IMG/VR virus record: IMGVR_UViG_3300038393_000457
Coordinates: 19,809 to 83,808 of that record
Source of the DNA: a virus
Taxonomy: Duplodnaviria; Caudoviricetes
DNA: 64,000 nt
Direction: 5' to 3' (one strand)
Shown one piece after another: positions 11,048 to 27,293 of this stretch. Each line of letters starts with the position of its first letter. The first letter of the stretch is position 1. The translations under genes and the position numbers were made by a program. The notes under the pieces were generated by a model. The model made no database searches. It worked only from the letters and a program-made list of their open reading frames with translations, and was not told where the DNA came from.

Positions 11048-11267
11048 GGTGGATGGCACCGGCGCGCGGCGGGGACTAAGGTATGAATTGGTAACATCTT
11101 ACATGGAATAAATTTGCTTCTATGGTGTAACGGCAGCACGGTGTCCTTATAAGACATAAGCGGTAGATGACCGCGCGGAACAGGTTCGAATCCTGTTAGA
11201 AGTACCAATCCTGGAGATCGGCTAGATTAGCTGGAACGGCACGGTTCGAAACCGTGATCCACTACCA
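11048..11267 (+). ncRNA. Interrupted type II tRNA-like element whose anticodon loop contains a complete tRNA-Ile
   Basis: GGTGGAT (11048) pairs with ATCCACT-ACCA (11257-11267); T arm CACGG-TTCGAAA-CCGTG; V arm CGGCTA-GAT-TAGCTG; GGGA-CT ... AA-TCCT anticodon-stem halves flank a 130-nt insert. Confidence 0.55.
11116..11207 (+). tRNA. tRNA-Ile(UAU) with long variable arm
   Basis: GCTTCTA/TAGAAGT-ACCA; GTGTC-CTTATAA-GACAT; V arm GCGGT-AGATG-ACCGC. Confidence 0.8.
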
Positions 11268-11281
11268 AAATTGAGGATACA

Positions 11282-11566
11282 ATGAATATATATTTGGTTT
11301 GGGGTAGATATTGCGTTCAATATGAAGGATGTGAGGAATGGTTTGTCTGCGCCTATTTCTCTGAGAAAGATGCTGAGAAGCATGTAGAATATGCAAATAA
11401 ATGGGTATCTGAACATATTGACTCTAGGGTAAAGGATTTCCCTAATCCTTATGATTCATATTGCACCGAATATTTTTGGCGTAGTGAGACCGAGTATCAT
11501 TACAGCCCCATCCTCATAAAAAATTATTTTAAACCAATGTTGGAGCTTGACATTGAGTGTATCTAA
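11282..11566 (+). CDS. Hypothetical protein
   Basis: 94-aa ORF with GAGG RBS. Confidence 0.6.
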   Translation: MNIYLVWGRYCVQYEGCEEWFVCAYFSEKDAEKHVEYANKWVSEHIDSRVKDFPNPYDSYCTEYFWRSETEYHYSPILIKNYFKPMLELDIECI

Positions 11567-12053
11567 AGTGCGAATTGGTGATGAATCCAAAGGAAAACCA
11601 GAATTTGAAGGACTATTTGGTCCGGGAATTTATGGGTTCTTTGGTGAATATAGATGGCTCTCCAATTTTTATGGATTTTCCATTGAATATAATGGAAACA
11701 AATTTCGATCAACAGAACATGCTTATCAAGCTGCAAAATGCCTTGATCCGAACGATATCAATTTGTTTTCTGGATGCACAATGGCAGAAGCCAAGTTATA
11801 TGGTCGCAAAGTTGCTAGGCGTCCTGACTGGGAACAGGCCAAAGATGGTGTTATGCTTGACGTACTCCGGATTAAGTATATGAATCCGGAATTGAAACAG
11901 AAGTTAATCGACACCAATGGCCTTTATCTTGAAGAGACAAATTGGTGGGGAGATCAATATTGGGGTGTTTGTGAAGGCAAAGGTCTAAACAAACTTGGTA
12001 AACTGATTATGCGAGTACGAGATGAAATCGATTCTGGACAATTACACGGATGA
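11547..12053 (+). CDS. NADAR family protein (YbiA / T4 gp30.3-like)
   Basis: WLSNFY, STEHAYQAAK, LEETNWWGDQYWGV, GLNKLGKLIMRVR motifs. Confidence 0.9.
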   Translation: MTLSVSKVRIGDESKGKPEFEGLFGPGIYGFFGEYRWLSNFYGFSIEYNGNKFRSTEHAYQAAKCLDPNDINLFSGCTMAEAKLYGRKVARRPDWEQAKDGVMLDVLRIKYMNPELKQKLIDTNGLYLEETNWWGDQYWGVCEGKGLNKLGKLIMRVRDEIDSGQLHG

Positions 12054-12198
12054 AGTGTTCAATAACCTGGCTATCCAGGTTGGAGTAAAAGCTGCAGATA
12101 CTCTCTGCACATTAGAAAATATGGTTCATTACTTCCTTGAAAATATCAGTCCTGAGGAGGCTGCCAAGGAATTAGTAATACAGGTAGTGGAGATTTGA

Positions 12199-12486
12199 TT
12201 GGCTAAGACTAGACGACATGAGGAATATGAAGATAGTGGTTACAACCAACTATCTTTTGCGCCTTTTTGTGATGATTTCAGACATTTAGTTTGTCTACCA
12301 TATTCAGTGGAAAACCTACATATTATAGCAAAAGAACTTGGTATTGGTAGGTCTTGGTTCCACGAAGGTAGACTTCCTCATTATGATATTCCAAAGAAGC
12401 GCGTTGATGAAATCACATCTCTGTGCAATGTCATTTCAACACGTGATATTGTGAGGATTATCAAAGGTCAAATTGGTAATACCTAA
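12199..12486 (+). CDS. DUF4031-like protein
   Basis: LH--A-ELGI-RSWFH-----HYDIP pattern; start codon uncertain. Confidence 0.55.
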   Translation: MAKTRRHEEYEDSGYNQLSFAPFCDDFRHLVCLPYSVENLHIIAKELGIGRSWFHEGRLPHYDIPKKRVDEITSLCNVISTRDIVRIIKGQIGNT

Positions 12487-12494
12487 AAAAGGAT

Positions 12495-12522
12495 TTGACA
12501 AAAATTAAGAGTGGTGTATAAG
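12495..12522 (+). promoter_or_regulatory. Sigma70-like promoter overlapping a late-like TATAAGTA motif
   Basis: TTGACA-N16-TATAAG, 6 nt upstream of the allo-tRNA-like pair. Confidence 0.65.
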
Positions 12523-12528
12523 TAATAC

Positions 12529-12623
12529 GGATGCTGAACTGGACAAGCGCGCCGGCCACGACTTGAAATCGTGTGGAGCCTCAGAGATGGGGTTTGGAGG
12601 GCAGGACTACCCGGCATCCGCCA
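12529..12623 (+). tRNA. Non-canonical 8/4 (allo-tRNA-like) tRNA-Ser(UGA)
   Basis: 8-bp acceptor GGATGCTG/CGGCATCC, G73, CCA; CACGA-CTTGAAA-TCGTG; long V arm; T loop lacks TTCG. Confidence 0.65.
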
Positions 12624-12625
12624 TT

Positions 12626-12714
12626 GGAAAGTAAATTGCTCGGGCGGGCAACCACGCTTGGAAAGCGTGTGGTTCTTTAAAAGGAATACGGATCAAGACC
12701 GTTGCTTTCCTCCA
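12626..12714 (+). tRNA. Non-canonical 8/4 or 9/3 (allo-tRNA-like) tRNA with GGA (Ser) anticodon
   Basis: GGAAAGTA(A)/(T)TGCTTTCC-TCCA; 6-bp D stem TTGCTC-GGGC-GGGCAA; CACGC-TTGGAAA-GCGTG; T arm ACGG-ATCAAGA-CCGT. Confidence 0.7.
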
Positions 12715-12740
12715 TTTTCTAAACCAAAAGGTAAATTGTT

Positions 12741-13337
12741 ATGAAGTCTTTGATGAACAAGATTCCTTGCACTTCTGCAACGAAGATGATGATGTGGCAT
12801 TTCATGGATGCCCCTGAGAAGTTTGCTACGGAAGACCATAAGAAGCTCTTCCATAGAATGGCTATGGCTGATGAATTTTGTCTGATGGACCTGCTGTCCT
12901 TGATGGATTATATAAATCGGCACCCTGTTACTGGAAATTATGACTATTCCAATCTTGGTGGGGCAGGACCTGATTTCATCATTGGTCAGTTGGAAGTCAT
13001 GTTCCAGACAACTGCAATGACCGAGAGTATGCATTATTATGATGTTCTCGTTGGTTTTGCGGAGAATCGTGCTACGAGTTATCAGGAATTGGTTGATTAC
13101 CTTGCAACTAATCCTATTCTCCCTTCTCCGACTGAGATCAGGGCTCAGTCGGATAAGGTTACCCGTGACACCAAGAAGATTATCTTGGATAAGATTGCCA
13201 AGCTCGACCCTTCTCTCGTGAACCAGTTCGGTTTGGATGATATTGCAGACAAGTACCTGGACGATGTTGGTGGTCAGGAAGGAAGTGATCTTTCTGATTG
13301 GGGCAGCGCAGAAGGAATGAAGAGAAAGCTTCACTAA
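12741..13337 (+). CDS. Hypothetical protein
   Basis: 198-aa ORF, codon use like highly expressed genes. Confidence 0.7.
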   Translation: MKSLMNKIPCTSATKMMMWHFMDAPEKFATEDHKKLFHRMAMADEFCLMDLLSLMDYINRHPVTGNYDYSNLGGAGPDFIIGQLEVMFQTTAMTESMHYYDVLVGFAENRATSYQELVDYLATNPILPSPTEIRAQSDKVTRDTKKIILDKIAKLDPSLVNQFGLDDIADKYLDDVGGQEGSDLSDWGSAEGMKRKLH

Positions 13338-13402
13338 CACAGTTACATTGCTTTCTCTCTGAGGTGATGATATAAAAGAGAAGAGTAATGTAAAGGTGTT
13401 AT

Positions 13403-13990
13403 GTGCAAATTCTTTCACTTGACAAGTCTGGGTATCCTAGAGGGTTTATTACGATCCAAAATGCAATCGAAATGATTGCGAAGGATAAAATCCTTTGGAG
13501 TCTTGGTAACCCAATTGCAACTTATCGTGGTGGTTATAACAATGATGGTGTGCGTTCCGTAATCGAAACGCCACCTATCATTGCTATCACCGGAACAGAG
13601 TTTGCAAAACAAAAGCGTTTTCCTAAAGTTATCCTGACGAACAATTCGCTTTTTAGTAGGGATCGTCATATTTGCGCTTATTGTGGTGGAAAATTCATGC
13701 CACGAAAGCTATCACGTGATCATGTAATACCTGTTTCTCGTGGTGGTCCGAATACCTGGAAGAATGTGGTGACTGCATGTATCCCATGTAACACCAAGAA
13801 GGATAATCGGACCCCAGAAGAAGCTGGAATGAAACTTCTGTATGTTCCTTATGAGCCCTCTCATGCGGAACATCTAATATTGAAGAATCGCAACATCACA
13901 GAAGATCAAATGGATTATCTATCAAACCATGTGTCGCCGGAGTTTCTCCGGCGCATGACGGATGTAGAATTATTTGGTGAGGATAAATAA
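13403..13990 (+). CDS. HNH endonuclease (McrA-like HNH_5 type)
   Basis: [10 protein letters not shown]...[38 protein letters not shown]. Confidence 0.9.
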   Translation: [195 protein letters not shown]

Positions 13991-14361
13991 TGAAACTCGC
14001 TTTCTATAAAGTCGCACCTATGGCTGATGATGTGGACAATCTTGTTCCAATCAAATATGCTTACATGGATGGATATGTCTTTGGTGATCGTATACTTGAA
14101 GATGTAATGTTCAAATATTGGATTGATGACAAAGGTAAATTGAAGTCTGATTTTGCTAAACCGAATGGTTATACCAAAGGTTTGAATAAAAAGAAATGGC
14201 TCAAGGAATCTATTGGTTATGTTACCGCCGTGGAAGGTGTTGTTGAATTTCAGTTAATTGAGGATGTGCTTTCTGAAGCGGTATTGTGGGACCATGATAG
14301 ATCATGGAATGATCAACCATATACATTCTTTGATGAAGAACCACGATTTGTGACTAAGTAA
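13990..14361 (+). CDS. Hypothetical protein
   Basis: 123-aa coupled ORF. Confidence 0.6.
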   Translation: MKLAFYKVAPMADDVDNLVPIKYAYMDGYVFGDRILEDVMFKYWIDDKGKLKSDFAKPNGYTKGLNKKKWLKESIGYVTAVEGVVEFQLIEDVLSEAVLWDHDRSWNDQPYTFFDEEPRFVTK

Positions 14362-15204: not shown

Positions 15205-15264
15205 TTTTTTTAATTTATTTTTGTAATTTTGGTAAAAAAGAATACTAAGTAAACTCTCAAAGGC

Positions 15265-15292
15265 TTGACTACCTCAAATATTCTGATATTAT
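15265..15292 (+). promoter_or_regulatory. Sigma70-like promoter (late-like TACTAAGTA at 15243-15251 upstream)
   Basis: TTGACT-N16-TATTAT. Confidence 0.5.
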
Positions 15293-15304
15293 ATAGAAAT
15301 GAAG

Positions 15305-15503
15305 CATTGATTTAGGCAGATTCATTCGCCTGTAAAGAGCATTATCGCTCACCGCTGTAAGGTTGGTTATTGAATGAATCTTCCTAAATTAATGAATCCT
15401 CGATGCTAGTTTGTAACTGAGATTGTATCAAGAAGTGCAGGAATGATTGCAAAATTCCTGAAAAACAAACGACCCATCGGCTCCAGAGTCGTAATTCTGG
15501 AGA
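15305..15503 (+). ncRNA. Structured ncRNA candidate
   Basis: 12-bp stem 15305-15316/15383-15394 and 10-bp stem 15318-15327/15372-15381 around a multiloop; three further hairpins; no ORF. Confidence 0.5.
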
Positions 15504-15512
15504 CTTTACAAT

Positions 15513-15587: not shown

Positions 15588-15645
15588 ATTACTACCCCTA
15601 CCAAGGGATCGAATAAAAGATCATAACTTTGGTAGTTTCATTTAT

Positions 15646-15695
15646 GCTCGCTCGCCGTAAGGTGTGCAACTGATCGAAAGATCAAGCGAGCACCA
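15646..15695 (+). ncRNA. 50-nt CCA-terminated mini tRNA-like RNA
   Basis: GCTCGCT/AGCGAGC-ACCA acceptor stem closing two GNRA hairpins (CGCC-GTAA-GGTG, TGATC-GAAA-GATCA). Confidence 0.65.
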
Positions 15696-15731
15696 ATTAT
15701 AATGTCCCTATAGTGAAACTGAATAGTCAAT

Positions 15732-15809
15732 GGTGCTGTATCCCTCGACGCTACGAACGTCGTGAAAGGTAATTGGATCATGCAGGTTCGACCCCTGTCA
15801 GCATCTCCA
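15732..15809 (+). tRNA. tRNA-Arg(ACG)-like RNA lacking a D arm at the normal position
   Basis: GGTGCTG/CAGCATC-TCCA; CGACG-CTACGAA-CGTCG starts 7 nt after the acceptor; T arm GCAGG-TTCGACC-CCTGT. Confidence 0.7.
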
Positions 15810-16386
15810 TTATTCTATTAGGTTCTCCATATAGAAGCTTAATAGATTTTTTTACTTGATCTAATTTCTCCTGTTGTTTGATGACAACGATTGGATTCTT
15901 TGGATCAAGAAATATGTTAAGATTAGGAAGATAGAAATCTGGAAAGTATTTGTGTTCTTTCCCATTTTTATCGATCCAAGGAATTGATGTTTTTGGTTGT
16001 TCCCAAATAATATTGGCTTCATCAAGTAATTGGGCCATTTTTACTTCCCAACCAGAATCAAAGATAAAGTTTTTGTAAATTTGACGTTTTATACCGGAAG
16101 CATTCTTTCTTTTGACCGCGATGAAACATTGGTCAGAACAAGTTGTTCCAATTTTCTTTTGTGACGCAAAATATTTTTGGCATACAGAACATTGTCGAAA
16201 ATATACCTTGGAATTGGGTCCACAAACATGTCTCTTGCTGAAGAAGCCTCTTTTACCAATTGTTGTTGATTTTATCCTTGTATAATTACGACCGCGTTTA
16301 AGGTTATTGTATGTTGCGGAACAAGATGAACCACAGAATTTTCTTTTTAATGGTATAAGTAAGTTGCAATTTAAACAATTATGCAT
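15778..16386 (-). CDS. Free-standing homing endonuclease-like protein (Zn-finger repeats + PD-(D/E)XK/TnsA-like domain)
   Basis: CLNC..KFCGSSC and CSVC..CSDQC; FDSGWEVKMAQLLD...YFPDFYLP...LDPK; AT-rich; 3' end overlaps the tRNA-like T arm. Confidence 0.75.
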   Translation of the reverse strand: MHNCLNCNLLIPLKRKFCGSSCSATYNNLKRGRNYTRIKSTTIGKRGFFSKRHVCGPNSKVYFRQCSVCQKYFASQKKIGTTCSDQCFIAVKRKNASGIKRQIYKNFIFDSGWEVKMAQLLDEANIIWEQPKTSIPWIDKNGKEHKYFPDFYLPNLNIFLDPKNPIVVIKQQEKLDQVKKSIKLLYGEPNRIMEMLTGVEPA

Positions 16387-16481
16387 TATAAATCTCCTTC
16401 TAAATGCTAATTGTATTTAGTAAAATTTCGACTCAAGATGTGGGTTCGAGTCCTGCTAGGGACGCCATTTAAGAGGTTGTT

Positions 16482-16718: not shown

Positions 16719-16798
16719 GGGGGACGGGACTGCTTGGGGTGGTCGTCGCACTTGCAATGCGAATATTCAGCAGGGTTCAAATCCCTGGTTCTCCACCA
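16719..16798 (+). tRNA. tRNA-Ala(UGC)
   Basis: TCGCA-CTTGCAA-TGCGA; G3:U70 pair; ACCA end. Confidence 0.9.
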
Positions 16799-16800
16799 AA

Positions 16801-16919
16801 ATTAACATACACCAGCGCCGCGTGGTTATACTAATCACCTAAGACGTGAAAGCATTCGAAAGAATGGGCCTGTTGGAGCAAAATACGGTGCGGATAAACT
16901 TGCTTTCATGTATGTTAAT
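16801..16919 (+). ncRNA. Structured ncRNA candidate (about 120 nt)
   Basis: Terminal 10-bp stem ATTAACATAC/GTATGTTAAT; internal GTGAAAGCA/TGCTTTCAT. Confidence 0.5.
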
Positions 16920-16931
16920 ATTCTAGAAATA

Positions 16932-17174
16932 GTCAGCTAACAACTTCCCCGTAGAAGGGGTGGCCAGTCACAAATCGACGGCCTGACAAATGGTTAGCAC
17001 AATTCAGAGCTTAGACCGGGATCGATTCACTCAGAAGCTATCAGTGACCGGCTATGTGGTTGTTGTCTCGCAATGCTTCTGGCACGCAACCAGAAATTAT
17101 GCAGGTACCATTCGCGTGAAGATTTGGCTAAGCTAATGTGATAATCTGAGGCCTGCACCACATTAGATGTTGAC
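16932..17174 (+). ncRNA. Structured ncRNA candidate (about 240 nt) with probable pseudoknot
   Basis: Closing GTCAGC/GTTGAC; TGCAGG/CCTGCA crossed by CTAATGTG (17133-17140)/CACATTAG (17159-17166). Confidence 0.5.
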
Positions 17175-17204
17175 AGTAAGTAGAGTTTTTGTTAGTATGT
17201 GTTT

Positions 17205-17636
17205 GTTCGTTCTTAGAGAAATGCCGTGACAGAGTGATCACGTTTTACTTTTCGGACGGAATGTGCCCTGGTAAACAACTACGGGGCGGGAGTAGGAGTG
17301 AGAAGGATAAAGTCCTTGAAGACTGGAAAGTATGTTGTAGCGTCCAGTTGGAGAGAGCAACACGACAGAACATAGTCTAGAAAAGCGTGTTGTATCCGTT
17401 AATAACGGATGAGTCGTTGATAATGTACTAAGCGGCCACTTGGTAAGTTTGAGACTCTGACTGATTAATCCCCTCATGTTTGAAACTCGGAGGCCTTGAC
17501 AGCCACCCGGCATTTCTCTAAGATCGAATGATTGTAGACGCTAAGGTTTAATTTGACCTCAGAAGTGAAAACCAATAAAGATTGTTGGTGATAGTATCTT
17601 CGATTACGAGACGATTTGAAAGGGTCGGTTCTACAT
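17205..17636 (+). ncRNA. Large structured ncRNA candidate (about 430 nt)
   Basis: Perfect 16-bp long-range stem 17211-17226/17508-17523 plus many internal helices; no credible ORF. Confidence 0.6.
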
Positions 17637-17646
17637 TTGTTTTTAT

Positions 17647-17721
17647 ACGGGAGTAGCTCAGTGAAAGAGCGTCTGGCATCAGGTCAGAAGGTCGGTGGTT
17701 CAAGTCCATCCTTCCGTGCCA
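17647..17721 (+). tRNA. Degenerate tRNA with UCA at the anticodon position (probable pseudo-tRNA, Pro-like body)
   Basis: ACGGGAG/CTTCCGT-GCCA; TCTGG-CATCAGG-TCAGA; A33, and D loop lacks GG. Confidence 0.55.
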
Positions 17722-17726: not shown

Positions 17727-17781
17727 GGAGGGCTTCCTAAGGGTATGGGAGCTAAGTGCGCTAGAGGTGCAACCTCCACCA
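17727..17781 (+). ncRNA. 55-nt CCA-terminated mini tRNA-like RNA
   Basis: GGAGG/CCTCC-ACCA closing two short hairpins. Confidence 0.55.
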
Positions 17782-17848: not shown

Positions 17849-17921
17849 ACACCAGTGTTCCGACAGGTAAGGGAGACGTCTTTTAAACGTCTATATGTGG
17901 GTTCAAATCCCACCTGGTGTA
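17849..17921 (+). tRNA. tRNA-Lys(UUU), encoded end ACTA not ACCA
   Basis: ACACCAG/CTGGTGT; GACGT-CTTTTAA-ACGTC. Confidence 0.85.
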
Positions 17922-18634
17922 CTAAGAAGAAATTTTTTCTTTACAGTATTATAATTAGCACCTCTTGGACTTTTTCCTTGTGCAATAAGATATTGACGAA
18001 TAGAAGGATATCCTTCTATTTCAATTTTCTTGGTGTTCTTTCTACGTCTTATATTTCTACCTCTCCATGTATCTGTTTGTGAATGACAATTTGGGCATAG
18101 AAATTCCACATTTTCTCTTGTGTTATTATGATGATTACCATCCTTATGTTCAAATTCCAATGTAATTGGTTTACCTAACCAAGTGTCATTATGACATTTA
18201 TTGCACCTATTTTCTTGATCTCTTAATACCTGTTCTTTAAGTTCTTTGACATATGATAATGGATTTCTTTCTCGTCTTTTTGCATGTTCTATTTTCCATT
18301 TAAGACCATCCATTAATCTTTTATGTTCCATTGAACAAAATTTCTTTTGTTTTCTGCTAAGTATATTATAACAACCATCAATTCCACAATAACAATTTTT
18401 ATTATCTAAATCCTTTAGACGTTGGAAATTGTTGACTCTGGTGGAACAACTATTGCAGCAATATTTTGGATTTCTTGTGTTTTTGTTGCATTCTTGGTTC
18501 ATACATTGATGTGGTTGTCTCATTATTTGACTTTCATTTTTTGTTATGTTAGTATTTACCATACTAAATAATTGATCAAAAGTCAATTGGATATTATAAA
18601 TAGGATTTCCGGCACGATGTAATGGTGCCGCCAA
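17903..18634 (-). CDS. HNH homing endonuclease with N-terminal Cys-rich repeats
   Basis: CNKC...LEFEHKDGNHHNNTRENVEFLCPNCHSQT; AT-rich; true start may be downstream of the listed one. Confidence 0.85.
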   Translation of the reverse strand: MAAPLHRAGNPIYNIQLTFDQLFSMVNTNITKNESQIMRQPHQCMNQECNKNTRNPKYCCNSCSTRVNNFQRLKDLDNKNCYCGIDGCYNILSRKQKKFCSMEHKRLMDGLKWKIEHAKRRERNPLSYVKELKEQVLRDQENRCNKCHNDTWLGKPITLEFEHKDGNHHNNTRENVEFLCPNCHSQTDTWRGRNIRRRKNTKKIEIEGYPSIRQYLIAQGKSPRGANYNTVKKKFLLSTPGGI

Positions 18635-19045
18635 GAACGTCGGTCAGATATGGCCGATTGGATCGCTCAGGTGGTCCTAGGTTCTTGGACAAGTTTTGCG
18701 GTAGCTTACGGATGTTTGTCTAGGTCGAAAGACTAAATTTCGGAGTGTGAAGGAAGCACGGTGGTCTTTTAGACGACCAGAATCGGATCGTTACCGGTCG
18801 AAATTTTCCGCAACTAAATAGACAACCGTAGTGTGAAGAACACGTAAATCGGATGAATTTTTGGCATTGAGTGTTTGGGAAAGTATGATATCTGACTGCA
18901 CTGGTTGATGCATTCCAGACGGTCTAACTCAACTATCACCGTTGGTTATCATGGTACATGGTGGAAATGGTATACACGCACGTTTTGAAGACGGGCGCTC
19001 GAAAGAGATTGCAGGTTCGAATCCTGTTGTACACTGTGACGATCC
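18610..19045 (+). ncRNA. Large structured ncRNA candidate with an embedded tRNA-like domain
   Basis: Stems 18631-18638/18681-18688; 10-bp long-range stem 18785-18794/19036-19045 encloses the tRNA-Leu-like module. Confidence 0.5.
18952..19035 (+). pseudogene. tRNA-Leu-like module (UGA at anticodon position), incomplete acceptor, no CCA
   Basis: TGGTGGAAATGGTATACAC D arm typical of Leu; CTC-GAAA-GAG V arm; GCAGG-TTCGAAT-CCTGT; only 5 acceptor pairs. Confidence 0.55.
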
Positions 19046-19269: not shown

Positions 19270-19285
19270 ATTTAAGAGGTATATT

Positions 19286-19492
19286 ATGTCTGATAATAGC
19301 AGTAGTTCTAGTAGCGGTGGTATTGGTGTTTTCGGTTTGCTTGGTGTTGCATTCGTTGTTCTCAAGCTGACTGGATATATTGATTGGTCTTGGTGGTTAG
19401 TCACTCTACCATTTTGGGGTGGATTGGCTTTTGTTATTGCCTTTCTACTGATTATCTTCCTCGGTGCGGTTTTCTTAGAAATGAGAAAATAA
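19286..19492 (+). CDS. Small phage transmembrane protein
   Basis: MSDNSSSSSSGGIG-FGLL-VAFVVLKLTG-IDWSWW-V--P-W pattern widespread in phages; GAGG RBS. Confidence 0.75.
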   Translation: MSDNSSSSSSGGIGVFGLLGVAFVVLKLTGYIDWSWWLVTLPFWGGLAFVIAFLLIIFLGAVFLEMRK

Positions 19493-19495
19493 GTA

Positions 19496-19572: not shown

Positions 19573-19629
19573 ACGGTGGATTTCCCTAAGTAAGCATAGG
19601 TAAGACTTGCTTAAAGGAAATCCACCGTG
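19573..19629 (+). promoter_or_regulatory. RBS/start-sequestering hairpin of GIY-YIG gene
   Basis: ACGGTGGATTTCC (19573-19585) / GGAAATCCACCGT (19616-19628) covers the RBS and GTG start; late-like CCTAAGTA at 19585. Confidence 0.7.
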
Positions 19630-20256
19630 TTCTATACGATTTATAAGATAACTAATAAAATTAATGGAAAATATTACATTGGTAAACATCAAACTGAAAA
19701 TTTAGATGATGGTTATTTTGGTTCTGGTAAATTAATCAAAAAAGCCATTAAAAAATATGGCATAGAAAATTTTATTAAAGAAATCTTGTTCGTGTATGAT
19801 AATGAACAAGAAATGAATGAGAAAGAAAAGGAATTAGTAACCTTAAGAGAAGATAGTTATAACCTTTGTCCTGGTGGACAAGGTGGATTTGGTTATATTA
19901 ATAAAATAATATCGAAAGATGATAGATCAAAATATGGTAAAATTGGCGGCATCAAAATATCCACAGAAATTCAAACAAAAGGATTGTTCTTCAAAAATCT
20001 TACCAACAAATTTTCTAAAGGAAATCCATACCGATTTACTAAAGAAAATAATTACATGGCAGGTAAACAACATTCCTTAGAAGTGAAGAAAAAAATTGGT
20101 GAAGCGAATTCTTTACATCAGTCTGGTAAAAAGAATTCTCAATATGGTACTTGTTGGATATATCATCCACAACTAGGTAATAAGAAGATTGACAAAGAAG
20201 AACTAAATAAATATATTGAATTGGGCTATATTAAAGGCCGTCAAAAGTGGTATTAG
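19627..20256 (+). CDS. GIY-YIG homing endonuclease, Seg-like, with NUMOD3-like segment
   Basis: IYKITNKINGKYYIGKH...GYFGSG; GKQHSLEVKKKIGE; KNSQYGTCWI. Confidence 0.9.
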   Translation: MFYTIYKITNKINGKYYIGKHQTENLDDGYFGSGKLIKKAIKKYGIENFIKEILFVYDNEQEMNEKEKELVTLREDSYNLCPGGQGGFGYINKIISKDDRSKYGKIGGIKISTEIQTKGLFFKNLTNKFSKGNPYRFTKENNYMAGKQHSLEVKKKIGEANSLHQSGKKNSQYGTCWIYHPQLGNKKIDKEELNKYIELGYIKGRQKWY

Positions 20257-20553: not shown

Positions 20554-20626
20554 GCCTAGTGGTCTCGGGTACCAATCTGGTCTCATAAGCTGGATGTGAT
20601 TGGTTCAAATCCAATACGAGGCACCA
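20554..20626 (+). tRNA. tRNA with CAU anticodon (Met or Ile2), reduced D arm
   Basis: GCCTAGT/ACGAGGC-ACCA; loop CTCATAA; ATTGG-TTCAAAT-CCAAT. Confidence 0.7.
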
Positions 20627-20723: not shown

Positions 20724-20805
20724 GCCAAGTTCGCATAGCGGCGATTGCAGCACTTTTGTAAAGTGCCATTCCACATCGGGGGTTCGAGTCCCTCACTTGG
20801 CTCCA
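20724..20805 (+). tRNA. tRNA-Thr(UGU), enlarged variable region
   Basis: GCCAAGT/ACTTGGC-TCCA; GCACT-TTTGTAA-AGTGC; 11-nt variable region. Confidence 0.88.
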
Positions 20806-21163: not shown

Positions 21164-21715
21164 GTGATGTTAAATAAAATAGAATGTCAAAAATTATATG
21201 ACCAAGGTTTCTCTTTAAAAGAGATTGCAGAAAAATTTGGTACCTATAAATTGAAGATTCAAAGACTTGGTCTGGATATTAGGACAAGTCATGAGTCAAG
21301 AGAATTTCGTAATAACCACAAGTTAACAACGGAACAAAAGAAAAAATTATCATTGATAGCCATCAAAAGAGGTTTTGGTGGTACAAACAGAAGAAAGACA
21401 TTTCTATACAAAAATGTTATTTTGGAAAGTTCTTATGAATTGAAAGTGGCTAAAGAATTAGATAATAATGGAATTTTGTGGGAACGACCCAAAAGATTTC
21501 ATTGGATTGATAATTTTGGAATTAAGCACCATTATACGCCAGATTTTTATCTTCTAGATTATGATCTATATCTTGATCCCAAAAATGATTATCTAATTAA
21601 AAAAGATAAAGACAAAATTGAAAGAGTTCAAAACCAAAACAACATAAAGATATTTGTTATTGATAAGTATCATTTGACGTGGAAAGATATTTCTGTTATA
21701 ATAGGTAAATCTTAA
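21164..21715 (+). CDS. Free-standing endonuclease-like protein (HTH + PD-(D/E)XK/TnsA-like domain)
   Basis: LESSYELKVAKELD...HYTPDFYL...LYLDPKND; same family as 15778-16386; AT-rich. Confidence 0.75.
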   Translation: MMLNKIECQKLYDQGFSLKEIAEKFGTYKLKIQRLGLDIRTSHESREFRNNHKLTTEQKKKLSLIAIKRGFGGTNRRKTFLYKNVILESSYELKVAKELDNNGILWERPKRFHWIDNFGIKHHYTPDFYLLDYDLYLDPKNDYLIKKDKDKIERVQNQNNIKIFVIDKYHLTWKDISVIIGKS

Positions 21716-22489: not shown

Positions 22490-22574
22490 GCGGGTGTCGG
22501 ATAGCGGCTATTCCGCTTCCTTGCCAAGGAAGAGCCGAAAGGCATCATGGGTTCGAGTCCCATTACCCGCTCCA
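22490..22574 (+). tRNA. tRNA-Gly(GCC) with long variable arm
   Basis: GCGGGTG/TACCCGC-TCCA; CTTCC-TTGCCAA-GGAAG; V arm GCC-GAAA-GGC. Confidence 0.88.
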
Positions 22575-22824
22575 ATCCCTCCCATCTAACGTGTCTCAAT
22601 GGATGGTGTATGATTGCTGGTTCAATTTTCTGTCAGATGCGGCACGCGACTTTGGCAGTAAACGGTAGTCTCTCCAGCTATAAAAAGGATGAAACCGAAT
22701 ATTTCTTTGTGTGATCAGTAGTGAATTTTGCGACACGTAAGTCTAGCTATTGGTTCCACCTTGTATGATCTGTGTCGAGGAGTGGCGGATGCTTAAACTT
22801 GACAAGTGTGAATATGAGTTTTAT

Positions 22825-22908
22825 ATCGGTGCTAGGGTAGTGGGATACCTAACTGTCTCCAAAACAGTCGCCTAGAGCTAGGGGGTTCGATTCCTCACAC
22901 CGGTGCCA
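22825..22908 (+). tRNA. tRNA-Trp(CCA), enlarged variable region
   Basis: ATCGGTG/CACCGGT-GCCA; ACTGT-CTCCAAA-ACAGT; 12-nt variable region. Confidence 0.82.
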
Positions 22909-22914
22909 TAGCGT

Positions 22915-23143
22915 GCTAGACGTTATCTAGCCTGGTCCTATGACAGTTCCATAGGAAGGGATTTGTTGATTGTTCCTGGAACAATACAATCATCGCGAAA
23001 TTCTCTGCCCCTATAGTTTACTTTAGGGCCCCCCGAGTCCTTCGTGACACGGGACGATGCCTGCAAGTGTGACCTTGCAGGGACCAATGGAGTAATCTGT
23101 TGGTATAGGGTAGCCAGCGTTCCCCATGTCACAGAAACGCTGG
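22915..23143 (+). ncRNA. Tandem hairpin array, ncRNA candidate
   Basis: At least six consecutive 6-8 bp hairpins, e.g. CCTGCAAG/CTTGCAGG and CCAGCGTT/AACGCTGG. Confidence 0.45.
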
Positions 23144-23152
23144 GTTTATTTT

Positions 23153-23228
23153 GGTTCCGAAGAGCAAAGGATAGAGCCTCTTCCCTGTCTAGGAAGAGTA
23201 GGGGGTTTGAGTCCCCCCGGAATCGCCA
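23153..23228 (+). tRNA. tRNA-Asp(GUC)
   Basis: GGTTCCG/CGGAATC-GCCA; CTTCC-CTGTCTA-GGAAG; T loop TTTGAGT; weak D stem. Confidence 0.8.
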
Positions 23229-23229
23229 T

Positions 23230-23396
23230 TTTCTCCACGCGGCAGGAAGCGGGGTCCACTGAAACAGCCCGTAAGGATAAAAGGAATTAGGAGTCCAGTA
23301 GAATAAGATTTCATTTGAAAGTTGCCGTCTGAGACGGATTTGGTATAACTGCGGTGGATATTATTCGTGAAGCTTGTCCCTTGGTCCTTGGAGAAA
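23230..23396 (+). ncRNA. Structured ncRNA candidate (about 170 nt)
   Basis: Closing stem TTTCTCCA/TGGAGAAA between tRNA-Asp and tRNA-His; no ORF. Confidence 0.4.
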
Positions 23397-23405
23397 GTTA
23401 TTGAC

Positions 23406-23488: not shown

Positions 23489-23928
23489 ATGTTTGGAAAG
23501 ACTGTATAATGAGTAGGAATAATTTGAAGGCGACCTAAGGATAGGGTAGTCCCGCGTGTAGTCACAGGTCCAATTAAAGTCTCCCATCTTATTGAAAATT
23601 ATACATCTTCTCCGACTGCCTGCACATTACGGTGTGTGATTGGAGCATCTGGTATTCCAATGTCTAGAAATAGGCGGCAGAGCAATTGAACAAATAAGTA
23701 GAATAGGAAATTCCCAACGGAGGGTGAGTGTCAACCACTGGAATGACATTTGCAAGTCTAGTATACATGAGTGGCCAGCCGTAAGGTAAAGCGCACGTGA
23801 AGGTCGACAACAGCCCGTATGTACTCTTTTGAAGTGCTATGCTACCCAAGAGTGGTAGGAAAGTAATAAGAAGGATGATGACGGTCCCCTGGATAACCGA
23901 AAGCCGAAGAACGTCAGACTTCCAACGT
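23489..23928 (+). ncRNA. Large structured ncRNA candidate (about 440 nt; ROOL/GOLLD size class)
   Basis: Ends pair (ATGTTTGGAAAG/CTTCCAACGT); purine-rich internal loops, GTAA/GAAA tetraloops; lies between tRNA-His and tRNA-Cys; no credible ORF. Family assignment not verified. Confidence 0.55.
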
Positions 23929-23961
23929 GTATATTAGAGACTGCAAGGGAATATTTTTTTT

Positions 23962-24039
23962 GGTGCCGTGGACTGAATGGATTTAGGCACGAGACTGCAA
24001 ATCTCGTTTATGTGGGTTCAAGTCCCACCGGCTCCTCCA
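23962..24039 (+). tRNA. tRNA-Cys(GCA)
   Basis: CGAGA-CTGCAAA-TCTCG; U73-CCA. Confidence 0.9.
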
Positions 24040-24060
24040 ATTTATATAATAAGGAAGATA

Positions 24061-24705
24061 ATGAAAGTAGCGTTGAAGGCTATTACCAAGCCAGTTGATG
24101 ATACCATGACAGTGGAAGACTTCGTTGCATATGTTGCACGAGTCTCCAATCCAGATAATCAAAACAACAAACTCACTTCCAAGAAGCTTCTAAAATATCT
24201 TCGGAAAAATAAGCATTTTTCCCCATTTGAGATGGTTAGTTTGGTAATAGAAGTCAATACTACTCGTGATATTGGTCGTCAGATTTTGCGTCATAGAAGT
24301 TGCCATTTCCAGGAATTTTCCCAGCGATATGCTGATCCAACTAAAATGGAATTTGTTTATCGAGAAGCCCGATTACAAGATAATAAAAATCGTCAAAATA
24401 GCATTGAGATTGATGACCCAGAATTGCAAAAAGAATGGGAAGCAATCCAATATGATATAATCTCTCGCGCAAAGGCAGGTTATCAATGGGCTGTTTCTAA
24501 AGGTATTGCCAAGGAACAAGCTAGAGTTGTATTACCGGAGGGATTAACAGCATCAAAAATGTATATTAGTGGCACTCTAAGAGATTGGTATTTTTATTGT
24601 CAACTTCGTATGTCCAACGGTACCCAGAAAGAACACATGGAAATTGCAAAAGCATGTTGGGATATCATCATTCAACAATTCCCTTCTTTGGCTGAAACAG
24701 AATGA
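24061..24705 (+). CDS. thyX: FAD-dependent thymidylate synthase
   Basis: H-SPFEM, QILRHRS-HFQEFSQRY signature, EQARVVLP, TQKEH. Confidence 0.95.
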   Translation: MKVALKAITKPVDDTMTVEDFVAYVARVSNPDNQNNKLTSKKLLKYLRKNKHFSPFEMVSLVIEVNTTRDIGRQILRHRSCHFQEFSQRYADPTKMEFVYREARLQDNKNRQNSIEIDDPELQKEWEAIQYDIISRAKAGYQWAVSKGIAKEQARVVLPEGLTASKMYISGTLRDWYFYCQLRMSNGTQKEHMEIAKACWDIIIQQFPSLAETE

Positions 24706-25133
24706 AGATTGATCCAGAACGTCTAAATAGTATGTTCCAGTTTGCTGGAATTGATAAAACCAAATTATATGATGCTCTCAGGACTATGGGCATCAAGCAA
24801 CTCAAGAAAGAAATGAGAGAGGGTTGGAGTCCTGACAATCCGACAAGGTGTTTCTGCTATGTGGTTTCGGAATTTGTTTACTGGTATGTCGCCCCTAACG
24901 GCTCAATTCCTTACTCTGTTGGCGTTCCTGGTGATCCTTGGATTCATCGGTATCTTCGGTGGCCTGATGGTACCGTTGTCGATCTAACAGCGGAACAATT
25001 TGACAACCATGAATTGGTAGATTATAATCTTGGTAAAAGGAGAATGTTTCTCCAAACTGGCTGTAAAGGCCCAAGCAAGCGCGCAAGAATGCTTGCAGAA
25101 TTGATGGGATATGACACTATTATCGCAAAGTGA
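24702..25133 (+). CDS. Hypothetical protein
   Basis: CYVVSE...H-YL....VDLTAEQF pattern; coupled to thyX. Confidence 0.65.
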   Translation: MKIDPERLNSMFQFAGIDKTKLYDALRTMGIKQLKKEMREGWSPDNPTRCFCYVVSEFVYWYVAPNGSIPYSVGVPGDPWIHRYLRWPDGTVVDLTAEQFDNHELVDYNLGKRRMFLQTGCKGPSKRARMLAELMGYDTIIAK

Positions 25134-25923
25134 AGAAGCTTCCGAATTTTTGAAATCTATTGGTAATTGGAGAGACCCTAATCCTGATCCAGTCATTACC
25201 GTACATGAAGGCATCCATGTTGTTCGGGATGATCTTCTAAATGCCGGCACCAAAGTAAGAGCAATTGACTATATCATTGGTCATATGAATCATGAAGTCA
25301 ACGAATGGGTAATGGGATCATGCCCTGCCATTGGTTATGCTCAAATTTCACTTCCAATAGTTTGTGCAAAACATGGAAAAAAGGCCGTAATCTTCGCTGC
25401 CAAAAGAGGGATGAATAATCTCCACCCATATCAGAAACGTGGAATTGAATTGGGTGTTAAATACTATTGGGTGGACAACGGAATGTTGACAGTTACCCAG
25501 AAGCGTGCTAGAGATTATGTCAATGCAAGTCCTGAGACGCGCAAGACTCTTCCGATGGGTCTTGAACATCCAACAGTATTTGGGTCGTTCATCAAAGTAG
25601 CGAGAAGTCTGCCAATCAAACCAGATTATGTCTGGTCGGCAGGGTCTTCTGGAACAGTCAATCGTTCTTTGCAGATGGCTTGGCCTGATGCTGAAGTTCA
25701 TGTTGTTTCAGTTGGACATAAAATGTCTGAACGGGAAATTGGAAGAGCGATTCATCATCGTTCATCCTATGCTTATACAGCAAGCGTAAAGGAAGTAGAT
25801 AAACCACCTTTTCCGTCTGTTCCCGAATATGACGCTAAAGTATGGCCTGTATTGAGAGAGTGGAAGTTGACAAACAAGATACCTGATAGTAAAATTGTGC
25901 TTTTCTGGAACGTAGGCGGATAA
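25111..25923 (+). CDS. PLP-dependent fold-type II enzyme (PALP / ACC deaminase-like)
   Basis: VVRDDLLNAGTKVR (Schiff-base Lys position), AGSSGT phosphate loop, YDAKVW, LFWNVG. Confidence 0.72.
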   Translation: MTLLSQSEEASEFLKSIGNWRDPNPDPVITVHEGIHVVRDDLLNAGTKVRAIDYIIGHMNHEVNEWVMGSCPAIGYAQISLPIVCAKHGKKAVIFAAKRGMNNLHPYQKRGIELGVKYYWVDNGMLTVTQKRARDYVNASPETRKTLPMGLEHPTVFGSFIKVARSLPIKPDYVWSAGSSGTVNRSLQMAWPDAEVHVVSVGHKMSEREIGRAIHHRSSYAYTASVKEVDKPPFPSVPEYDAKVWPVLREWKLTNKIPDSKIVLFWNVGG

Positions 25924-25954
25924 GCAAAAGACAACCCTTAAAAAGGAATCTCAA

Positions 25955-26125
25955 ATGGTAGACGTAGTAAAGACTGCTCAAGATGCGGCTAACACCGTAA
26001 ATCAGACTGCACAGACTGTAGAAACCAAGGTAGAGGTTTCCGAAAGCTGGGTGAAACAGCACCCTCTTATCACTCTAGCTATTGGTGCTGGTCTAGTTCT
26101 ATTGGTTCTAGCTCTGGTTCTTTAA
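25955..26125 (+). CDS. Tail-anchored small membrane protein (ElaB/YqjD-like topology)
   Basis: Hand translation ...WVKQHPLITLAIGAGLVLLVLALVL*; AAGGA RBS. Confidence 0.55.
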   Translation: MVDVVKTAQDAANTVNQTAQTVETKVEVSESWVKQHPLITLAIGAGLVLLVLALVL

Positions 26126-26137
26126 TCAATTTTTTAT

Positions 26138-26222
26138 GCGGGTATGGCGGAATTGGTAGACGTCCCGGCTTCAAACTCCGGCGAGGAAACTCATGGGGGT
26201 TCAAGTCCCTCTACCCGTACCA
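26138..26222 (+). tRNA. tRNA-Leu(CAA)
   Basis: GCGGGTA/TACCCGT-ACCA; GGCGGAATTGGTAGAC D arm; loop TTCAAAC; V arm GAG-GAAA-CTC. Confidence 0.88.
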
Positions 26223-26241
26223 GTTTTGTATAAAGGTAATT

Positions 26242-26412
26242 ATGAGTAATTTGTGGAAGACAGATACCGAATATAAAGTCGGTGATAGAGTTATGGTCCT
26301 TGGTAAGGAATATGAATGTACCAAGGATCATAAATCTAACGTCTTCGCAGACCAATTCTTTGGAAAGAACACCTCTCATAAGATAGAGGAAAAGGTCTGG
26401 AAGAAGGTTTAA
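26242..26412 (+). CDS. Stand-alone carbohydrate-binding-module-like protein (CBM5/12 pattern)
   Basis: Hand translation MSNLWKTDTEYKVGDRVMVLGKEYECTKDHKS...VWKKV*. Confidence 0.55.
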   Translation: MSNLWKTDTEYKVGDRVMVLGKEYECTKDHKSNVFADQFFGKNTSHKIEEKVWKKV

Positions 26413-26421
26413 AAATATTTT

Positions 26422-26498
26422 GCTACCGTAGCCCAACGGCAGGAGGCACGAGTCTTAGGAACTCGCCAGTGTCAGTTCGAATCTGACCGGTAGTACCA
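26422..26498 (+). tRNA. tRNA-Leu(UAG) with short variable loop
   Basis: GCTACCG/CGGTAGT-ACCA; CGAGT-CTTAGGA-ACTCG; 5-nt variable loop. Confidence 0.88.
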
Positions 26499-26511
26499 AT
26501 TTTGGTTTATT

Positions 26512-26745
26512 ATGCAATCTTTGATTGAAAGCTTCTTCAAGAATTTTAAATCAGCCAATATCTTATTGGAATGCATTCTTGACGGAACACATGTGGGATA
26601 TTGTGTTATTCACATCCCCAAGACAAAGAGACCAGATGATGGTGTGTCGTATAAACCCATCTGGCACGGTGAATGTAAGTATTGCAACAAACCAATCCAA
26701 TGTAATGAATTCGGAATGTGGGAATTAGAGAAGGATAAAAAATGA
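26512..26745 (+). CDS. Small Cys/His-containing hypothetical protein
   Basis: C..HIP...WHGECKYC pattern. Confidence 0.5.
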   Translation: MQSLIESFFKNFKSANILLECILDGTHVGYCVIHIPKTKRPDDGVSYKPIWHGECKYCNKPIQCNEFGMWELEKDKK

Positions 26746-27047
26746 AAGTGAATGATAATGTTGGTTTCCGTCCAATTGGAAACCAAGTATTGATTAGAGC
26801 AGAAGCAAATGCTTCGAAGAGTGCCGGTGGAATTTTAATTCCAGATAGCGCACAAGGTAGACCGACTGAAGGTGTTGTATTGGCAGTTGGTCAAGGTTCA
26901 CGAAACGACAAGGGTGAATTGATCCCTCTTGACGTTAAGCCTGGCGATAAGATCATGTTTGGTAAGTTTACTGGCACCGAGCTTTCCTTGAATGGAAATC
27001 GCTTGCTAATTATGAAAGAAACTGATATATTGGGTATTCTTAGTTAA
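26742..27047 (+). CDS. groES: Co-chaperonin GroES
   Basis: RPIGNQVLI, SAGGILIPDSA, G-VLAVG-G, VKPGDKIMFGKFTGTE, LLIMKETDILGI. Confidence 0.95.
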   Translation: MKVNDNVGFRPIGNQVLIRAEANASKSAGGILIPDSAQGRPTEGVVLAVGQGSRNDKGELIPLDVKPGDKIMFGKFTGTELSLNGNRLLIMKETDILGILS

Positions 27048-27125
27048 AGAAAAGTGGTATAGCGGAGAAATCGTAGCCACCACTCCTTCGACCAAAGGCG
27101 CTACATAAAGGTCGAAACAATTCAT

Positions 27126-27208
27126 GCACACGTCCCATAGCGGCCATTGGAGCAGACCCTTAATCTGTCGCGAAAGCATCGTCGGTTCGAGTCCGACCGT
27201 GTGTACCA
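27126..27208 (+). tRNA. tRNA-Lys(CUU) with long variable arm and C33
   Basis: GCACACG/CGTGTGT-ACCA; GCAGA-CCCTTAA-TCTGT; V arm GC-GAAA-GC. Confidence 0.82.
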
Positions 27209-27216
27209 ATTCTAAC

Positions 27217-27293
27217 GTCCTTGTGGTATAAAGGAATAGTGCCCCTCTTTCCTAAAGAGGTGTATGCAGGTTCGAATCCTGTCAAGGGCACCA
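27217..27293 (+). tRNA. tRNA-Arg(CCU)
   Basis: GTCCTTG/CAAGGGC-ACCA; CCTCT-TTCCTAA-AGAGG. Confidence 0.88.

Follow-up and report, generated by a model that had tools for sequence, protein, structure and literature searches.

Is a 16-kb district crowded with tRNA-like elements a working set of transfer RNA (tRNA) genes, a collection of protective decoys, or debris? The question is raised by positions 11048–27293 of the stretch of DNA analyzed here (the window), 64,000 nucleotides that correspond to bases 19809–83808 of an 83.8-kb virus record in IMG/VR. The large genes of the record (a gp61-type primase, ribonucleotide reductase, NAMPT and a NadR-like enzyme) point to a divergent T4-like phage, the primase being <40% identical to cyanomyovirus primases, and the district is, to judge from its sequence, the tRNA gene array of this uncultured T4-like phage. 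An earlier note on this DNA had proposed a translation-protection system of replacement tRNAs, decoys and scaffolds. We consider it likely, instead, that the array is a working and fast-evolving one, in which variant tRNAs and the footprints of endonuclease-driven cassette turnover are interleaved with small early genes.

All 25 tRNA genes that ARAGORN calls, from 11116 to 27293, are on the + strand. Eighteen of these reach the 29-bit gathering threshold of the Rfam tRNA model (RF00005), scoring 41.6–57.4 bits over model positions 1–71 as full-length cloverleaves; the earlier note's count of about 20 conventional tRNAs agrees with these figures. ARAGORN at its default settings misses three genes (a Ser(UGA)-like gene, Met and Asp), and a scan for a T arm followed by seven nucleotides, one base and CCA gives extra units ending at 11267, 16467, 20626 and 23228. 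About ten genes are irregular in that they fail or barely reach the Rfam threshold or escape ARAGORN, which bears out the suggestion of at least ten non-canonical tRNA-like RNAs and brings the census to about 18 conventional and about 10 irregular tRNA genes. It is of note that at least five genes (the Arg, Asp and Met genes, a Ser-like gene and the tRNA halves described below) were overlooked or wrongly drawn by the standard finders. Taken as a whole, the array is a nearly complete decoding set.

A search of 5.8 billion proteins, followed by contig look-ups, was the only source of useful relatives. The search returned two proteins 70% and 68% identical to the product of a 270-amino acid gene of the district (25111–25923). 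The same gene has four relatives in IMG/VR, none of them with a tRNA cluster nearby; two other district genes (183 and 147 amino acids) retrieved nothing useful there, and no close relative of the phage was found in that database. Among 50,697 phage records there was no DNA-level match to a cultured relative apart from pieces of Seg-like endonuclease genes. Near-identical Logan assemblies of the same phage exist. The comparative tests below cover two or three lineages including the window, the others being lineage B (contigs L055 and L046) and lineage C (L053 and L050; L051 also belongs here). Both have the same tRNA order, with the same genes. In the acceptor, anticodon and T stems of orthologous tRNAs 403 pairs are identical and 52 differ on one side; 285 show two-sided changes that preserve pairing, and the remaining 42 do not pair. 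The 285 two-sided changes that keep pairing are the mark of working genes, not of decaying copies. These comparisons show an array that is old, fast-evolving and held to the tRNA shape, and they rule out general decay.

Could the non-canonical elements nevertheless be decaying tRNA pseudogenes, and the spacers junk? Many elements score low or not at all in Rfam, several have no encoded CCA, most spacers are neither conserved nor unusually stable, and clear gene fragments are present. Besides genes for Thr(GGU), Asn and Trp, the irregular tRNA genes are the following.

12529–12623, + strand: irregular tRNA-Ser(UGA)-like gene (closure scan and fold; not called by ARAGORN or Rfam)
12626–12714, + strand: tRNA-Ser(GGA) of 8/4 layout (ARAGORN drawing; no Rfam match)
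15732–15809, + strand: rewired ('D-armless') tRNA-Arg(ACG) (orthologue at L053 9697–9775; family alignments A6 and A7)
16719–16798, + strand: tRNA-Ala
18951–19036, + strand: irregular tRNA-Ser(UGA)-like gene without encoded CCA (ARAGORN; Rfam 28.5 bits, just under threshold)
20554–20626, + strand: tRNA-Met(CAU) (ARAGORN at a relaxed threshold; T-arm scan; orthologue in lineage B)
23153–23228, + strand: tRNA-Asp(GUC) with an irregular D arm and T loop (T-arm scan and fold; missed by ARAGORN and Rfam)

Against decay, irregular tRNAs keep every stem by compensatory change and hold their slots in the relatives. They also supply anticodons that the array would otherwise lack (Arg ACG, Asp, Met and Ser GGA), and two spacer features, a 92-nt hairpin and the core of an element lying between tRNA-His and tRNA-Cys, show a conservation that neutral DNA lacks. 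The earlier note had said that it would be refuted if these elements turned out to be unconserved, to show no covariation and to be decaying; most of them are the opposite, belonging to an array that is syntenic in two lineages and carries compensatory stem changes. We therefore regard decay as highly improbable for the district, and as an explanation that stands only for the tRNA halves and the unconserved spacers.

The tRNA-Arg(ACG) at 15732–15809 breaks the order of the cloverleaf. Its acceptor stem is linked to the anticodon arm by a 7-nt connector in place of the D stem-loop, which sets it apart from a canonical tRNA, and the anticodon arm is followed by a 19–20-nt segment with a D-loop-like GG motif. 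The rest is canonical: a 7-bp acceptor stem, a 5-bp anticodon stem, a 7-nt loop with U33, a 5-bp T stem, the T-loop motif and an NCCA end. The gene scores 24.9 bits against the Rfam tRNA model, below threshold, and 100 bits against model R1. ARAGORN's 95-nt model of the gene was rejected as wrong, since it forces mismatches into the acceptor stem.

Is this a single aberrant gene or a type of tRNA? The lineage-C orthologue differs by four compensatory pairs in the acceptor stem and more in the anticodon stem, and lineage C has a third member, a rewired tRNA-Arg(UCU), in place of a canonical gene. A strict search with the rewired-Arg motif gave no match, but a degenerate one found four more loci in IMG/VR. 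The family now comprises eight distinct sequences from five phage contigs, with the anticodons ACG, UCU, CCG and CCU only. Pairing holds in 98.5% of cells across the family (38–51% in slid controls), and two-sided changes are seen in 15 of the 17 pairs; the three canonical helices are paired in 98–100% of cells, with covariation, in alignments A6 and A7. The connector and the segment after the anticodon arm are joined by a 2-bp bridge, columns 11–38 (G-C in four sequences, C-G in three) and 12–37 (C-G in six), so that the bridge across the anticodon arm covaries from C-G to G-C. Only these two central pairs are confirmed, the outer two of the proposed bridge being unsupported.

The rewired tRNA-Arg genes stand in the slots that canonical tRNA-Arg genes occupy in the sister lineages. 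They thus behave as replacements rather than decoys, which partly upholds the replacement tRNAs of the earlier proposal, though not its decoys or scaffolds, for which no support emerged. It also allows a direct comparison of a rewired gene with the ordinary gene of a sister phage. The closest parallel to the design is in mitochondria, where tRNAs lacking a D arm, such as metazoan mitochondrial tRNA-Ser(AGY), likewise have a short connector and no D hairpin between the acceptor and anticodon arms (PMC7609411, PMC4013460). Unlike those, the rewired tRNA-Arg has the 19–20-nt segment with the GG motif after the anticodon arm, to which two connector bases pair; it keeps a canonical T arm and CCA, belongs to a bacterial virus, and is confined to arginine. 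A review from 2020 deals with the loss of the D arm in mitochondria alone, and according to a 2024 paper every known bacterial tRNA is a cloverleaf (PMC11551756). In our literature search no publication came up on phage tRNAs that are rewired or lack a D arm. The taught rule is that bacterial translation uses cloverleaves only, and the arginine tRNA of this district, supported by covariation, departs from that order.

The rewired tRNA-Arg(ACG) is itself part of a larger arrangement. The earlier note had seen three places where a tRNA module sits inside another RNA (11048–11267, 15704–16467 and 18785–19045). The first two are real, and are made up as follows.

11048–11078, + strand: 5' half of a tRNA-like gene (gene X), an acceptor strand and a short D-like hairpin; its 7-nt strand pairs with 11257–11263
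11116–11207, + strand: tRNA-Ile(UAU), 92 nt, with a 5-bp variable arm (ARAGORN; Rfam 55 bits)
11208–11267, + strand: 3' part of gene X, comprising a hairpin, T arm, acceptor strand, A and CCA (T-arm scan)
15704–15730, + strand: 5' remnant of a tRNA-Arg, an acceptor strand and D arm, with a perfect 7-bp complement to 16457–16463
15778–16386, – strand (antisense to the array): PD-(D/E)XK-type endonuclease gene with a strong coding score and a ribosome-binding site
16430–16467, + strand: 3' remnant of a tRNA-Arg, comprising variable loop, T arm, acceptor strand, G and CCA (T-arm scan)

In the second nest a canonical tRNA-Arg has been split, its anticodon arm being replaced by about 700 nt that hold the rewired tRNA-Arg(ACG) and the antisense PD-(D/E)XK gene. 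The best matches of the 5' remnant are tRNA-Arg genes (20–21 of 26 positions), and about 18 nt of it are an insertion relative to lineage C; the 3' remnant shares 89% identity with the corresponding end of the rewired tRNA-Arg(UCU) in lineage C. Lineage B has an intact canonical tRNA-Arg(ACG) and lineage C a rewired gene without the outer pieces. The unbroken gene of lineage B and the cassette of the window, whose spare tRNA is itself of the rewired type, therefore form a before-and-after pair.

In the first nest the 5' half of gene X is kept in lineage B at L055 7583–7612 (local score 40–48, shuffle maximum 26), about 580 nt further upstream, and the 3' part at L055 8253–8313, where the T stem shows a swap from C-G to G-C; the 3' part is absent from lineage C. 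Between them the window has a 38-nt linker and tRNA-Ile(UAU), and lineage B a PD-(D/E)XK-like ORF (open reading frame) of 129 amino acids and tRNA-Ile(UAU). Lineage C has the tRNA-Ile(UAU) alone. Gene X resembles the allo-tRNAs in its short D stem with a tetraloop and its long variable arm. The third proposed nest was rejected: it amounts to a single 7-bp complement, of a kind that arises by chance about 0.5 times per kb, with no CCA and no conservation.

Phage T4 has a free-standing endonuclease, SegB, that carries out intronless homing. By analogy with it, nests 1 and 2 read best as resident tRNA genes broken by cassettes of an endonuclease and a spare tRNA, the resident genes being the presumed endonuclease targets. 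The two nested cases would then be the work of selfish elements and not composite RNAs made by design. In lineage B (L055 14795–14844) we also noticed the 3' half of an older tRNA-Asn, similar to the tRNA-Asn of the window, that has been displaced to a place right behind a new tRNA-Asn of 93 nt whose variable arm is long; by its sequence this is a third gene-replacement footprint.

Might the nests instead be genes with tRNA-shaped introns? In that case RNase P and 3' trimming would excise the inner tRNA, and a functional outer tRNA would be made from the two halves, either joined or simply held together. Both outer pairs do have complementary 7-bp acceptor strands and an encoded CCA, and the gene X halves are kept in two lineages. 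The outer tRNA-Arg, however, lacks the anticodon arm altogether, and the 38-nt linker of gene X (in lineage B the 129-amino acid ORF) stands before the inner tRNA, so that trimming would leave no clean ends. When the halves are joined in silico, many arbitrary junctions yield tRNA shapes with differing anticodons, and no junction is unique; the intron mode of ARAGORN adds nothing. Unlike known intron-containing tRNAs (group I or bulge-helix-bulge), the nests have no ribozyme core, Rfam detecting no group I or group II intron in the window, and exons that rebuild no complete anticodon arm. RNA ligase, RtcB and Rnl1 were not found on this fragment of about half a genome, in a search whose Rnl1 control also gave no match. 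Taken together these points make the intron explanation improbable, and we retain the reading of nests 1 and 2 as genes broken by cassettes.

The district has five endonuclease-type genes within 16 kb (one GIY-YIG, two HNH and two of PD-(D/E)XK type). One is the antisense gene at 15778–16386, which a gene caller also finds on another assembly, and whose product has weak Pfam matches to Phage_endo_I and TnsA and belongs with PHROG endonuclease families. The other four are listed here.

13403–13990, + strand: HNH homing-endonuclease-like gene (Pfam HNH_5, E 4e-16), syntenic in lineages B and C
17903–18313, – strand: HNH endonuclease gene (PHROG HNH families, E 2.6e-23), overlapping the 3' end of tRNA-Lys(UUU)
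19627–20256, + strand: GIY-YIG/NUMOD3 homing endonuclease gene (Pfam), present in both relatives
21164–21715, + strand: second PD-(D/E)XK-type endonuclease-like gene (PHROG endonuclease families)

The 17903–18313 gene is called, at 136 amino acids, on another assembly and is not present in the relatives. The 19627–20256 product resembles the Seg-like endonucleases of many T4-like phages, and that of 21164–21715 shares PHROG families with the 129-amino acid ORF of the lineage-B tRNA-Ile cassette. With their own start signals among the tRNA genes, and outside self-splicing introns, the five genes have the layout of free-standing homing endonuclease genes of the T4 SegB type; of their putative cutting of tRNA regions in phages that lack them, the sequences show the insertion footprints.

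Altogether the district has about 30 protein genes, including NADAR, DUF4031, ThyX, YunG and GroES, as judged by dicodon coding score and family searches; gene calls from another assembly of the same phage agree. The longest ThyX frame begins inside tRNA-Cys (ATG at 23977, in the region 23962–24060). The other assembly places the start at the equivalent of 24061, so that the true start is probably downstream of the tRNA.

Other irregular and variant tRNAs include:

17647–17721, + strand: tRNA with anticodon UCA and an A at position 33 (ARAGORN; Rfam 50.9 bits)
22490–22574, + strand: tRNA-Gly(GCC), 85 nt, with a tetraloop hairpin inserted in the variable region (ARAGORN; Rfam 50.4 bits)
26422–26498, + strand: tRNA-Leu(UAG), 77 nt, with a short variable loop of class I shape (ARAGORN; Rfam 52 bits)
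20724–20805, 22825–22908 and 27126–27208: tRNA-Thr(UGU), tRNA-Trp and tRNA-Lys(CUU), with variable-region insertions found in the window only

The orthologues of tRNA-Gly(GCC) are 73–75 nt long, and the relatives have variable-loop insertions of their own, in Lys(UUU) in lineages B and C and in Asn and Gln in B. Since the insertions hit different tRNAs in each lineage, they come and go between lineages. The long variable arm of tRNA-Ile(UAU) is conserved, orthologues of 93 and 94 nt being found in both relatives with compensatory change in the arm's stem; the type recurs in the unrelated contig L060. The layout of this tRNA is the ordinary 7/5 one with a normal D arm, and it is thus not the allo-tRNA(UAU). 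The tRNA-Leu(UAG) has class II counterparts of 83–84 nt in the relatives, in a different slot; type I tRNA-Leu is known from Streptomyces (PMC6614811). Contig L060, a 167-kb phage contig of IMG/VR, has between 4646 and 5707 three short class I-shaped tRNA-Leu genes (77–78 nt), a 92-nt long-arm tRNA-Ile(UAU) and two rewired tRNA-Arg genes, a combination that indicates that these oddities travel together beyond this clade.

The tRNA-Ser(GGA) has the 8-bp acceptor stem and 4-bp T stem of the 8/4 layout, a branch of 12 bp in all, with a long variable arm and U as discriminator. The 8/4 tRNA-Ser has been reported from phage tRNA clusters, together with 'polycistrons of irregular tRNAs' (Mukai et al. 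2017, PMC5389517), and the gene here matches that layout, its serylation being putative. Its neighbor, the Ser(UGA)-like gene at 12529–12623, differs in its poor T arm: it has an 8-bp acceptor stem, a long variable arm, discriminator G and a GCCA end, its T stem is doubtful, and its slot holds a canonical tRNA-Ser(UGA) in the relatives. The slot of the second Ser(UGA)-like gene (18951–19036) holds in lineage C another oddity with a UGA anticodon. The tRNA-Asp(GUC) shares with the relatives' tRNA-Asp an unusual anticodon loop and the slot between Trp and His. The UCA tRNA would read the stop codon UGA; it has A33 in place of the near-universal U, an A1-U72 pair and G73, and no orthologue was found in lineages B and C. 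Recoding of TGA or TAG, which this tRNA brought up as an explanation of the ORF-poor blocks, was rejected, the code 4 frames giving nonsense-like protein.

Outside the district ARAGORN finds two further tRNAs at 34446–34615 and four upstream of the window. One upstream call (genome C1:935–1032) is a tRNA-Phe(GAA) of 98 nt, far over the normal length, which may bear an insertion or be irregular. A tRNA-shaped gene missed by ARAGORN was also seen in lineage C (L053 12487–12561), with a 7-bp acceptor stem, a D arm, AAC read from the anticodon loop and almost no variable loop.

What of the spaces between these genes? About seven ORF-free structured blocks, or large noncoding RNAs, had been proposed. 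Several of these are protein genes, among them the two minus-strand endonuclease genes, and others are unconserved spacers; the claim that everything is co-oriented accordingly holds for the ARAGORN tRNAs, all on the + strand, and not for 15778–16386 and 17903–18313. Ten gaps are left after gene assignment, and four fold clearly better than shuffles on the + strand:

15205–15512, + strand: z-score –4.0
15588–15714/15730, + strand: z –3.7 to –4.5; a hairpin and mini RNA 1
17206–17528, + strand: sub-element of the gap 16799–17646, z –3.96; 323 nt closed by 21-nt inverted arms (95% complementary), with a sigma-70-like site ahead (17170–17198)
19270–19495, + strand: weaker, z –2.4

The other gaps are near chance in folding and show no conservation as gaps. 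Searches of the gaps against the relatives with tblastx gave no protein-level similarity, and their small ORFs have no Pfam family. The 17206–17528 element was not found in lineages B and C, and its inner ORFs are likewise without a Pfam family. In the Trp-His spacer (22909–23405) we noted that the minus strand folds far better than its shuffles (z –4.2), unlike the plus strand (z –1.4). Only five noncoding stretches are conserved in relatives:

15265–15292 and 15305–15396, + strand: sigma-70-like promoter site (score 10/12), then a 92-nt stem with a three-way tip
18604–18643, + strand: small hairpin with an invariant loop, kept in all three lineages (local alignments above shuffles)
22619–22746: aligns with lineage C (enclosing gap z +0.2)
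23229–23307: aligns with lineage C
23520–23950, + strand: His-Cys element, about 440 nt, ORF-free, between tRNA-His and tRNA-Cys (enclosing gap z –0.15)

Lineages B and C both keep the 92-nt stem, ten of whose pairs have undergone two-sided changes; its G-U pairs favor the + strand, and it matches no Rfam family; in the small hairpin two stem pairs have changed on both sides. The 34-nt core of the His-Cys element (23539–23572) does not vary among the three lineages, and the similarity of the element to lineage C extends in patches over about 440 nt. Its flanking helices keep pairing, RNAalifold on two sequences giving 29 two-sided pairs, a figure that may reflect overfitting. A search of 501 nt with lax filters gave no Rfam match, GOLLD and ROOL included, at E up to 10; indeed no Rfam family other than tRNA was found anywhere in the window. 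IMG/VR does not contain the core, and the only contig of the JGI metagenomes that has it is L051 of lineage C. The His-Cys element and the promoter-proximal 92-nt hairpin are accordingly candidate new phage RNAs.

Two further small elements end in CCA:

15646–15695, + strand: mini RNA 1, 50 nt, two tetraloop hairpins closed by a 7-bp stem and followed by A and CCA (closure scan; the fold of 15588–15730, which contains it, has z –3.7)
17727–17781, + strand: mini RNA 2, 55 nt, a short stem closing two hairpins, then A and CCA (fold; weak alone)

Lineage C (L053 9432–9695) has three RNAs with the same architecture and no shared sequence. CCA-ended mini RNAs are plausible on this evidence from sequence. 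A 7-bp closure followed by NCCA was rejected as a detector for them, the background being 30–38 matches per strand.

How would such an array be used? Sigma-70-like promoters would probably drive multi-gene transcripts, host RNase P would cut the 5' end of each tRNA-shaped unit, host endo- and exonucleases would trim the A/U-rich trailers past the encoded CCA, and the freed tRNAs would serve in phage translation. An AATT(T)-type leader, thought earlier to precede many of the RNAs, dissolves on inspection into an A/T-rich flank: T stands at position –1 in 22 of 28 tRNAs, and ATT follows CCA in ten. As a specific signal CCA+ATT was rejected, the hexamer being too frequent across the genome (57 copies on the + strand, 65 on the – strand). 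We infer that the flank is the ordinary context for RNase P and endonucleases. The odd RNAs would be of three kinds. The first would be working unusual tRNAs (the rewired Arg(ACG), the 8/4 Ser, the long-arm Ile(UAU), those with variable-loop hairpins and the short Leu), the second the broken halves of resident tRNAs where a cassette of endonuclease and spare tRNA inserted, and the third, the conserved structured spacers and the CCA-ended mini RNAs, probably processing or stability elements. The sequences themselves show the gene content, the synteny, the covariation and the anatomy of the cassettes, from which we infer transcription, processing, aminoacylation and the targets of the endonucleases.

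Several points weigh against the picture of a working array with cassette footprints. The function assigned to each RNA in the array is an interpretation of its sequence, neither the mini RNAs nor the His-Cys element has been given a role, and the record is estimated to be about 47% complete. In the gene X halves two lineages share 77–82% identity, although their other spacers do not align, and this conservation, with one compensatory T-stem change, is more than a dead scar should show. Finally, the main identity base recognized by the E. coli arginyl-tRNA synthetase, A20, sits in the D loop; the rewired tRNA-Arg has no normal D loop, and its arginylation is only putative.

A rival reading is a set of tRNAs shaped by defense evasion, in which the odd shapes (the rewired Arg, the 8/4 Ser and the variable-arm insertions of Lys, Gly, Trp, Thr and Ile) would have been selected to escape host systems that cut tRNAs and the mini RNAs and halves would act as decoys for acceptor-end enzymes. 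This overlaps with the preferred reading. Each lineage has acquired shape changes independently, in different tRNAs, the rewired design is limited to arginine tRNAs, and two lineages have mini RNAs. The GGQ protein (9348–9575), a short RF-1 domain protein below the Pfam threshold, is encoded beside the array, and is 35% identical to a 114-amino acid RF-1 domain protein encoded inside the array of lineage C, between tRNA-Asp and tRNA-His. Phage tRNAs that evade anticodon nucleases are documented (PMC10264068), and this counts in favor of evasion. The published evasion, however, works through changes in the anticodon loop, and the anticodon loops of the odd tRNAs here are mostly standard; the mini RNAs share no sequence and such closures are frequent by chance; and the rewired tRNAs replace canonical ones rather than adding to them, which speaks against decoys. 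We judge selection for evasion an attractive but unlikely reason for the shape changes. A stronger form, in which a re-engineered set (the Arg tRNAs with a re-ordered D arm, hairpin-bearing class I tRNAs and the 8/4 Ser) keeps translation running when the host destroys or disables ordinary tRNAs, and the conserved halves and mini RNAs are functional companions (decoys, assembly or processing partners) and not debris, seems to us doubtful also. The link once drawn to the GGQ mini-protein comes down to proximity, and a coordinated system of decoys and protection finds no support in our findings.

We thus return to a working tRNA array with cassette turnover, for which the tRNA region of phage T4 is the natural comparison. 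T4 has eight clustered, co-oriented tRNA genes, the free-standing GIY-YIG endonuclease SegB, and the stable RNAs known as species 1 and 2. The district shares with it the clustered and co-oriented tRNAs, an embedded Seg-type GIY-YIG gene, extra small structured RNAs, and the expectation of processing by host enzymes. It differs in having at least 28 tRNA genes rather than eight, spread over 16 kb with about 30 protein genes, in its five endonuclease-type genes, which come from three families and include two antisense ones, and in its cassette-split tRNA genes and several non-cloverleaf or irregular tRNAs. What the locus adds is the before-and-after pair with a sister lineage and a cassette whose spare tRNA is rewired, in effect a view of nuclease cassettes breaking a tRNA gene and bringing their own substitute. 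Such cassettes are a plausible engine for the quick turnover of phage tRNA sets.

Some minor observations concern the surroundings of the array. In lineage B (L055 2690–3145) the ribonucleotide reductase gene is followed by an Acb1-family gene (anti-CBASS phosphodiesterase). In the window, the 24 kb from 38000 to 62000 have a single ORF of at least 250 amino acids, and G+C content is 49–55% at 42–47 kb compared with about 40% elsewhere; this part may consist of many small genes or be a foreign insert.

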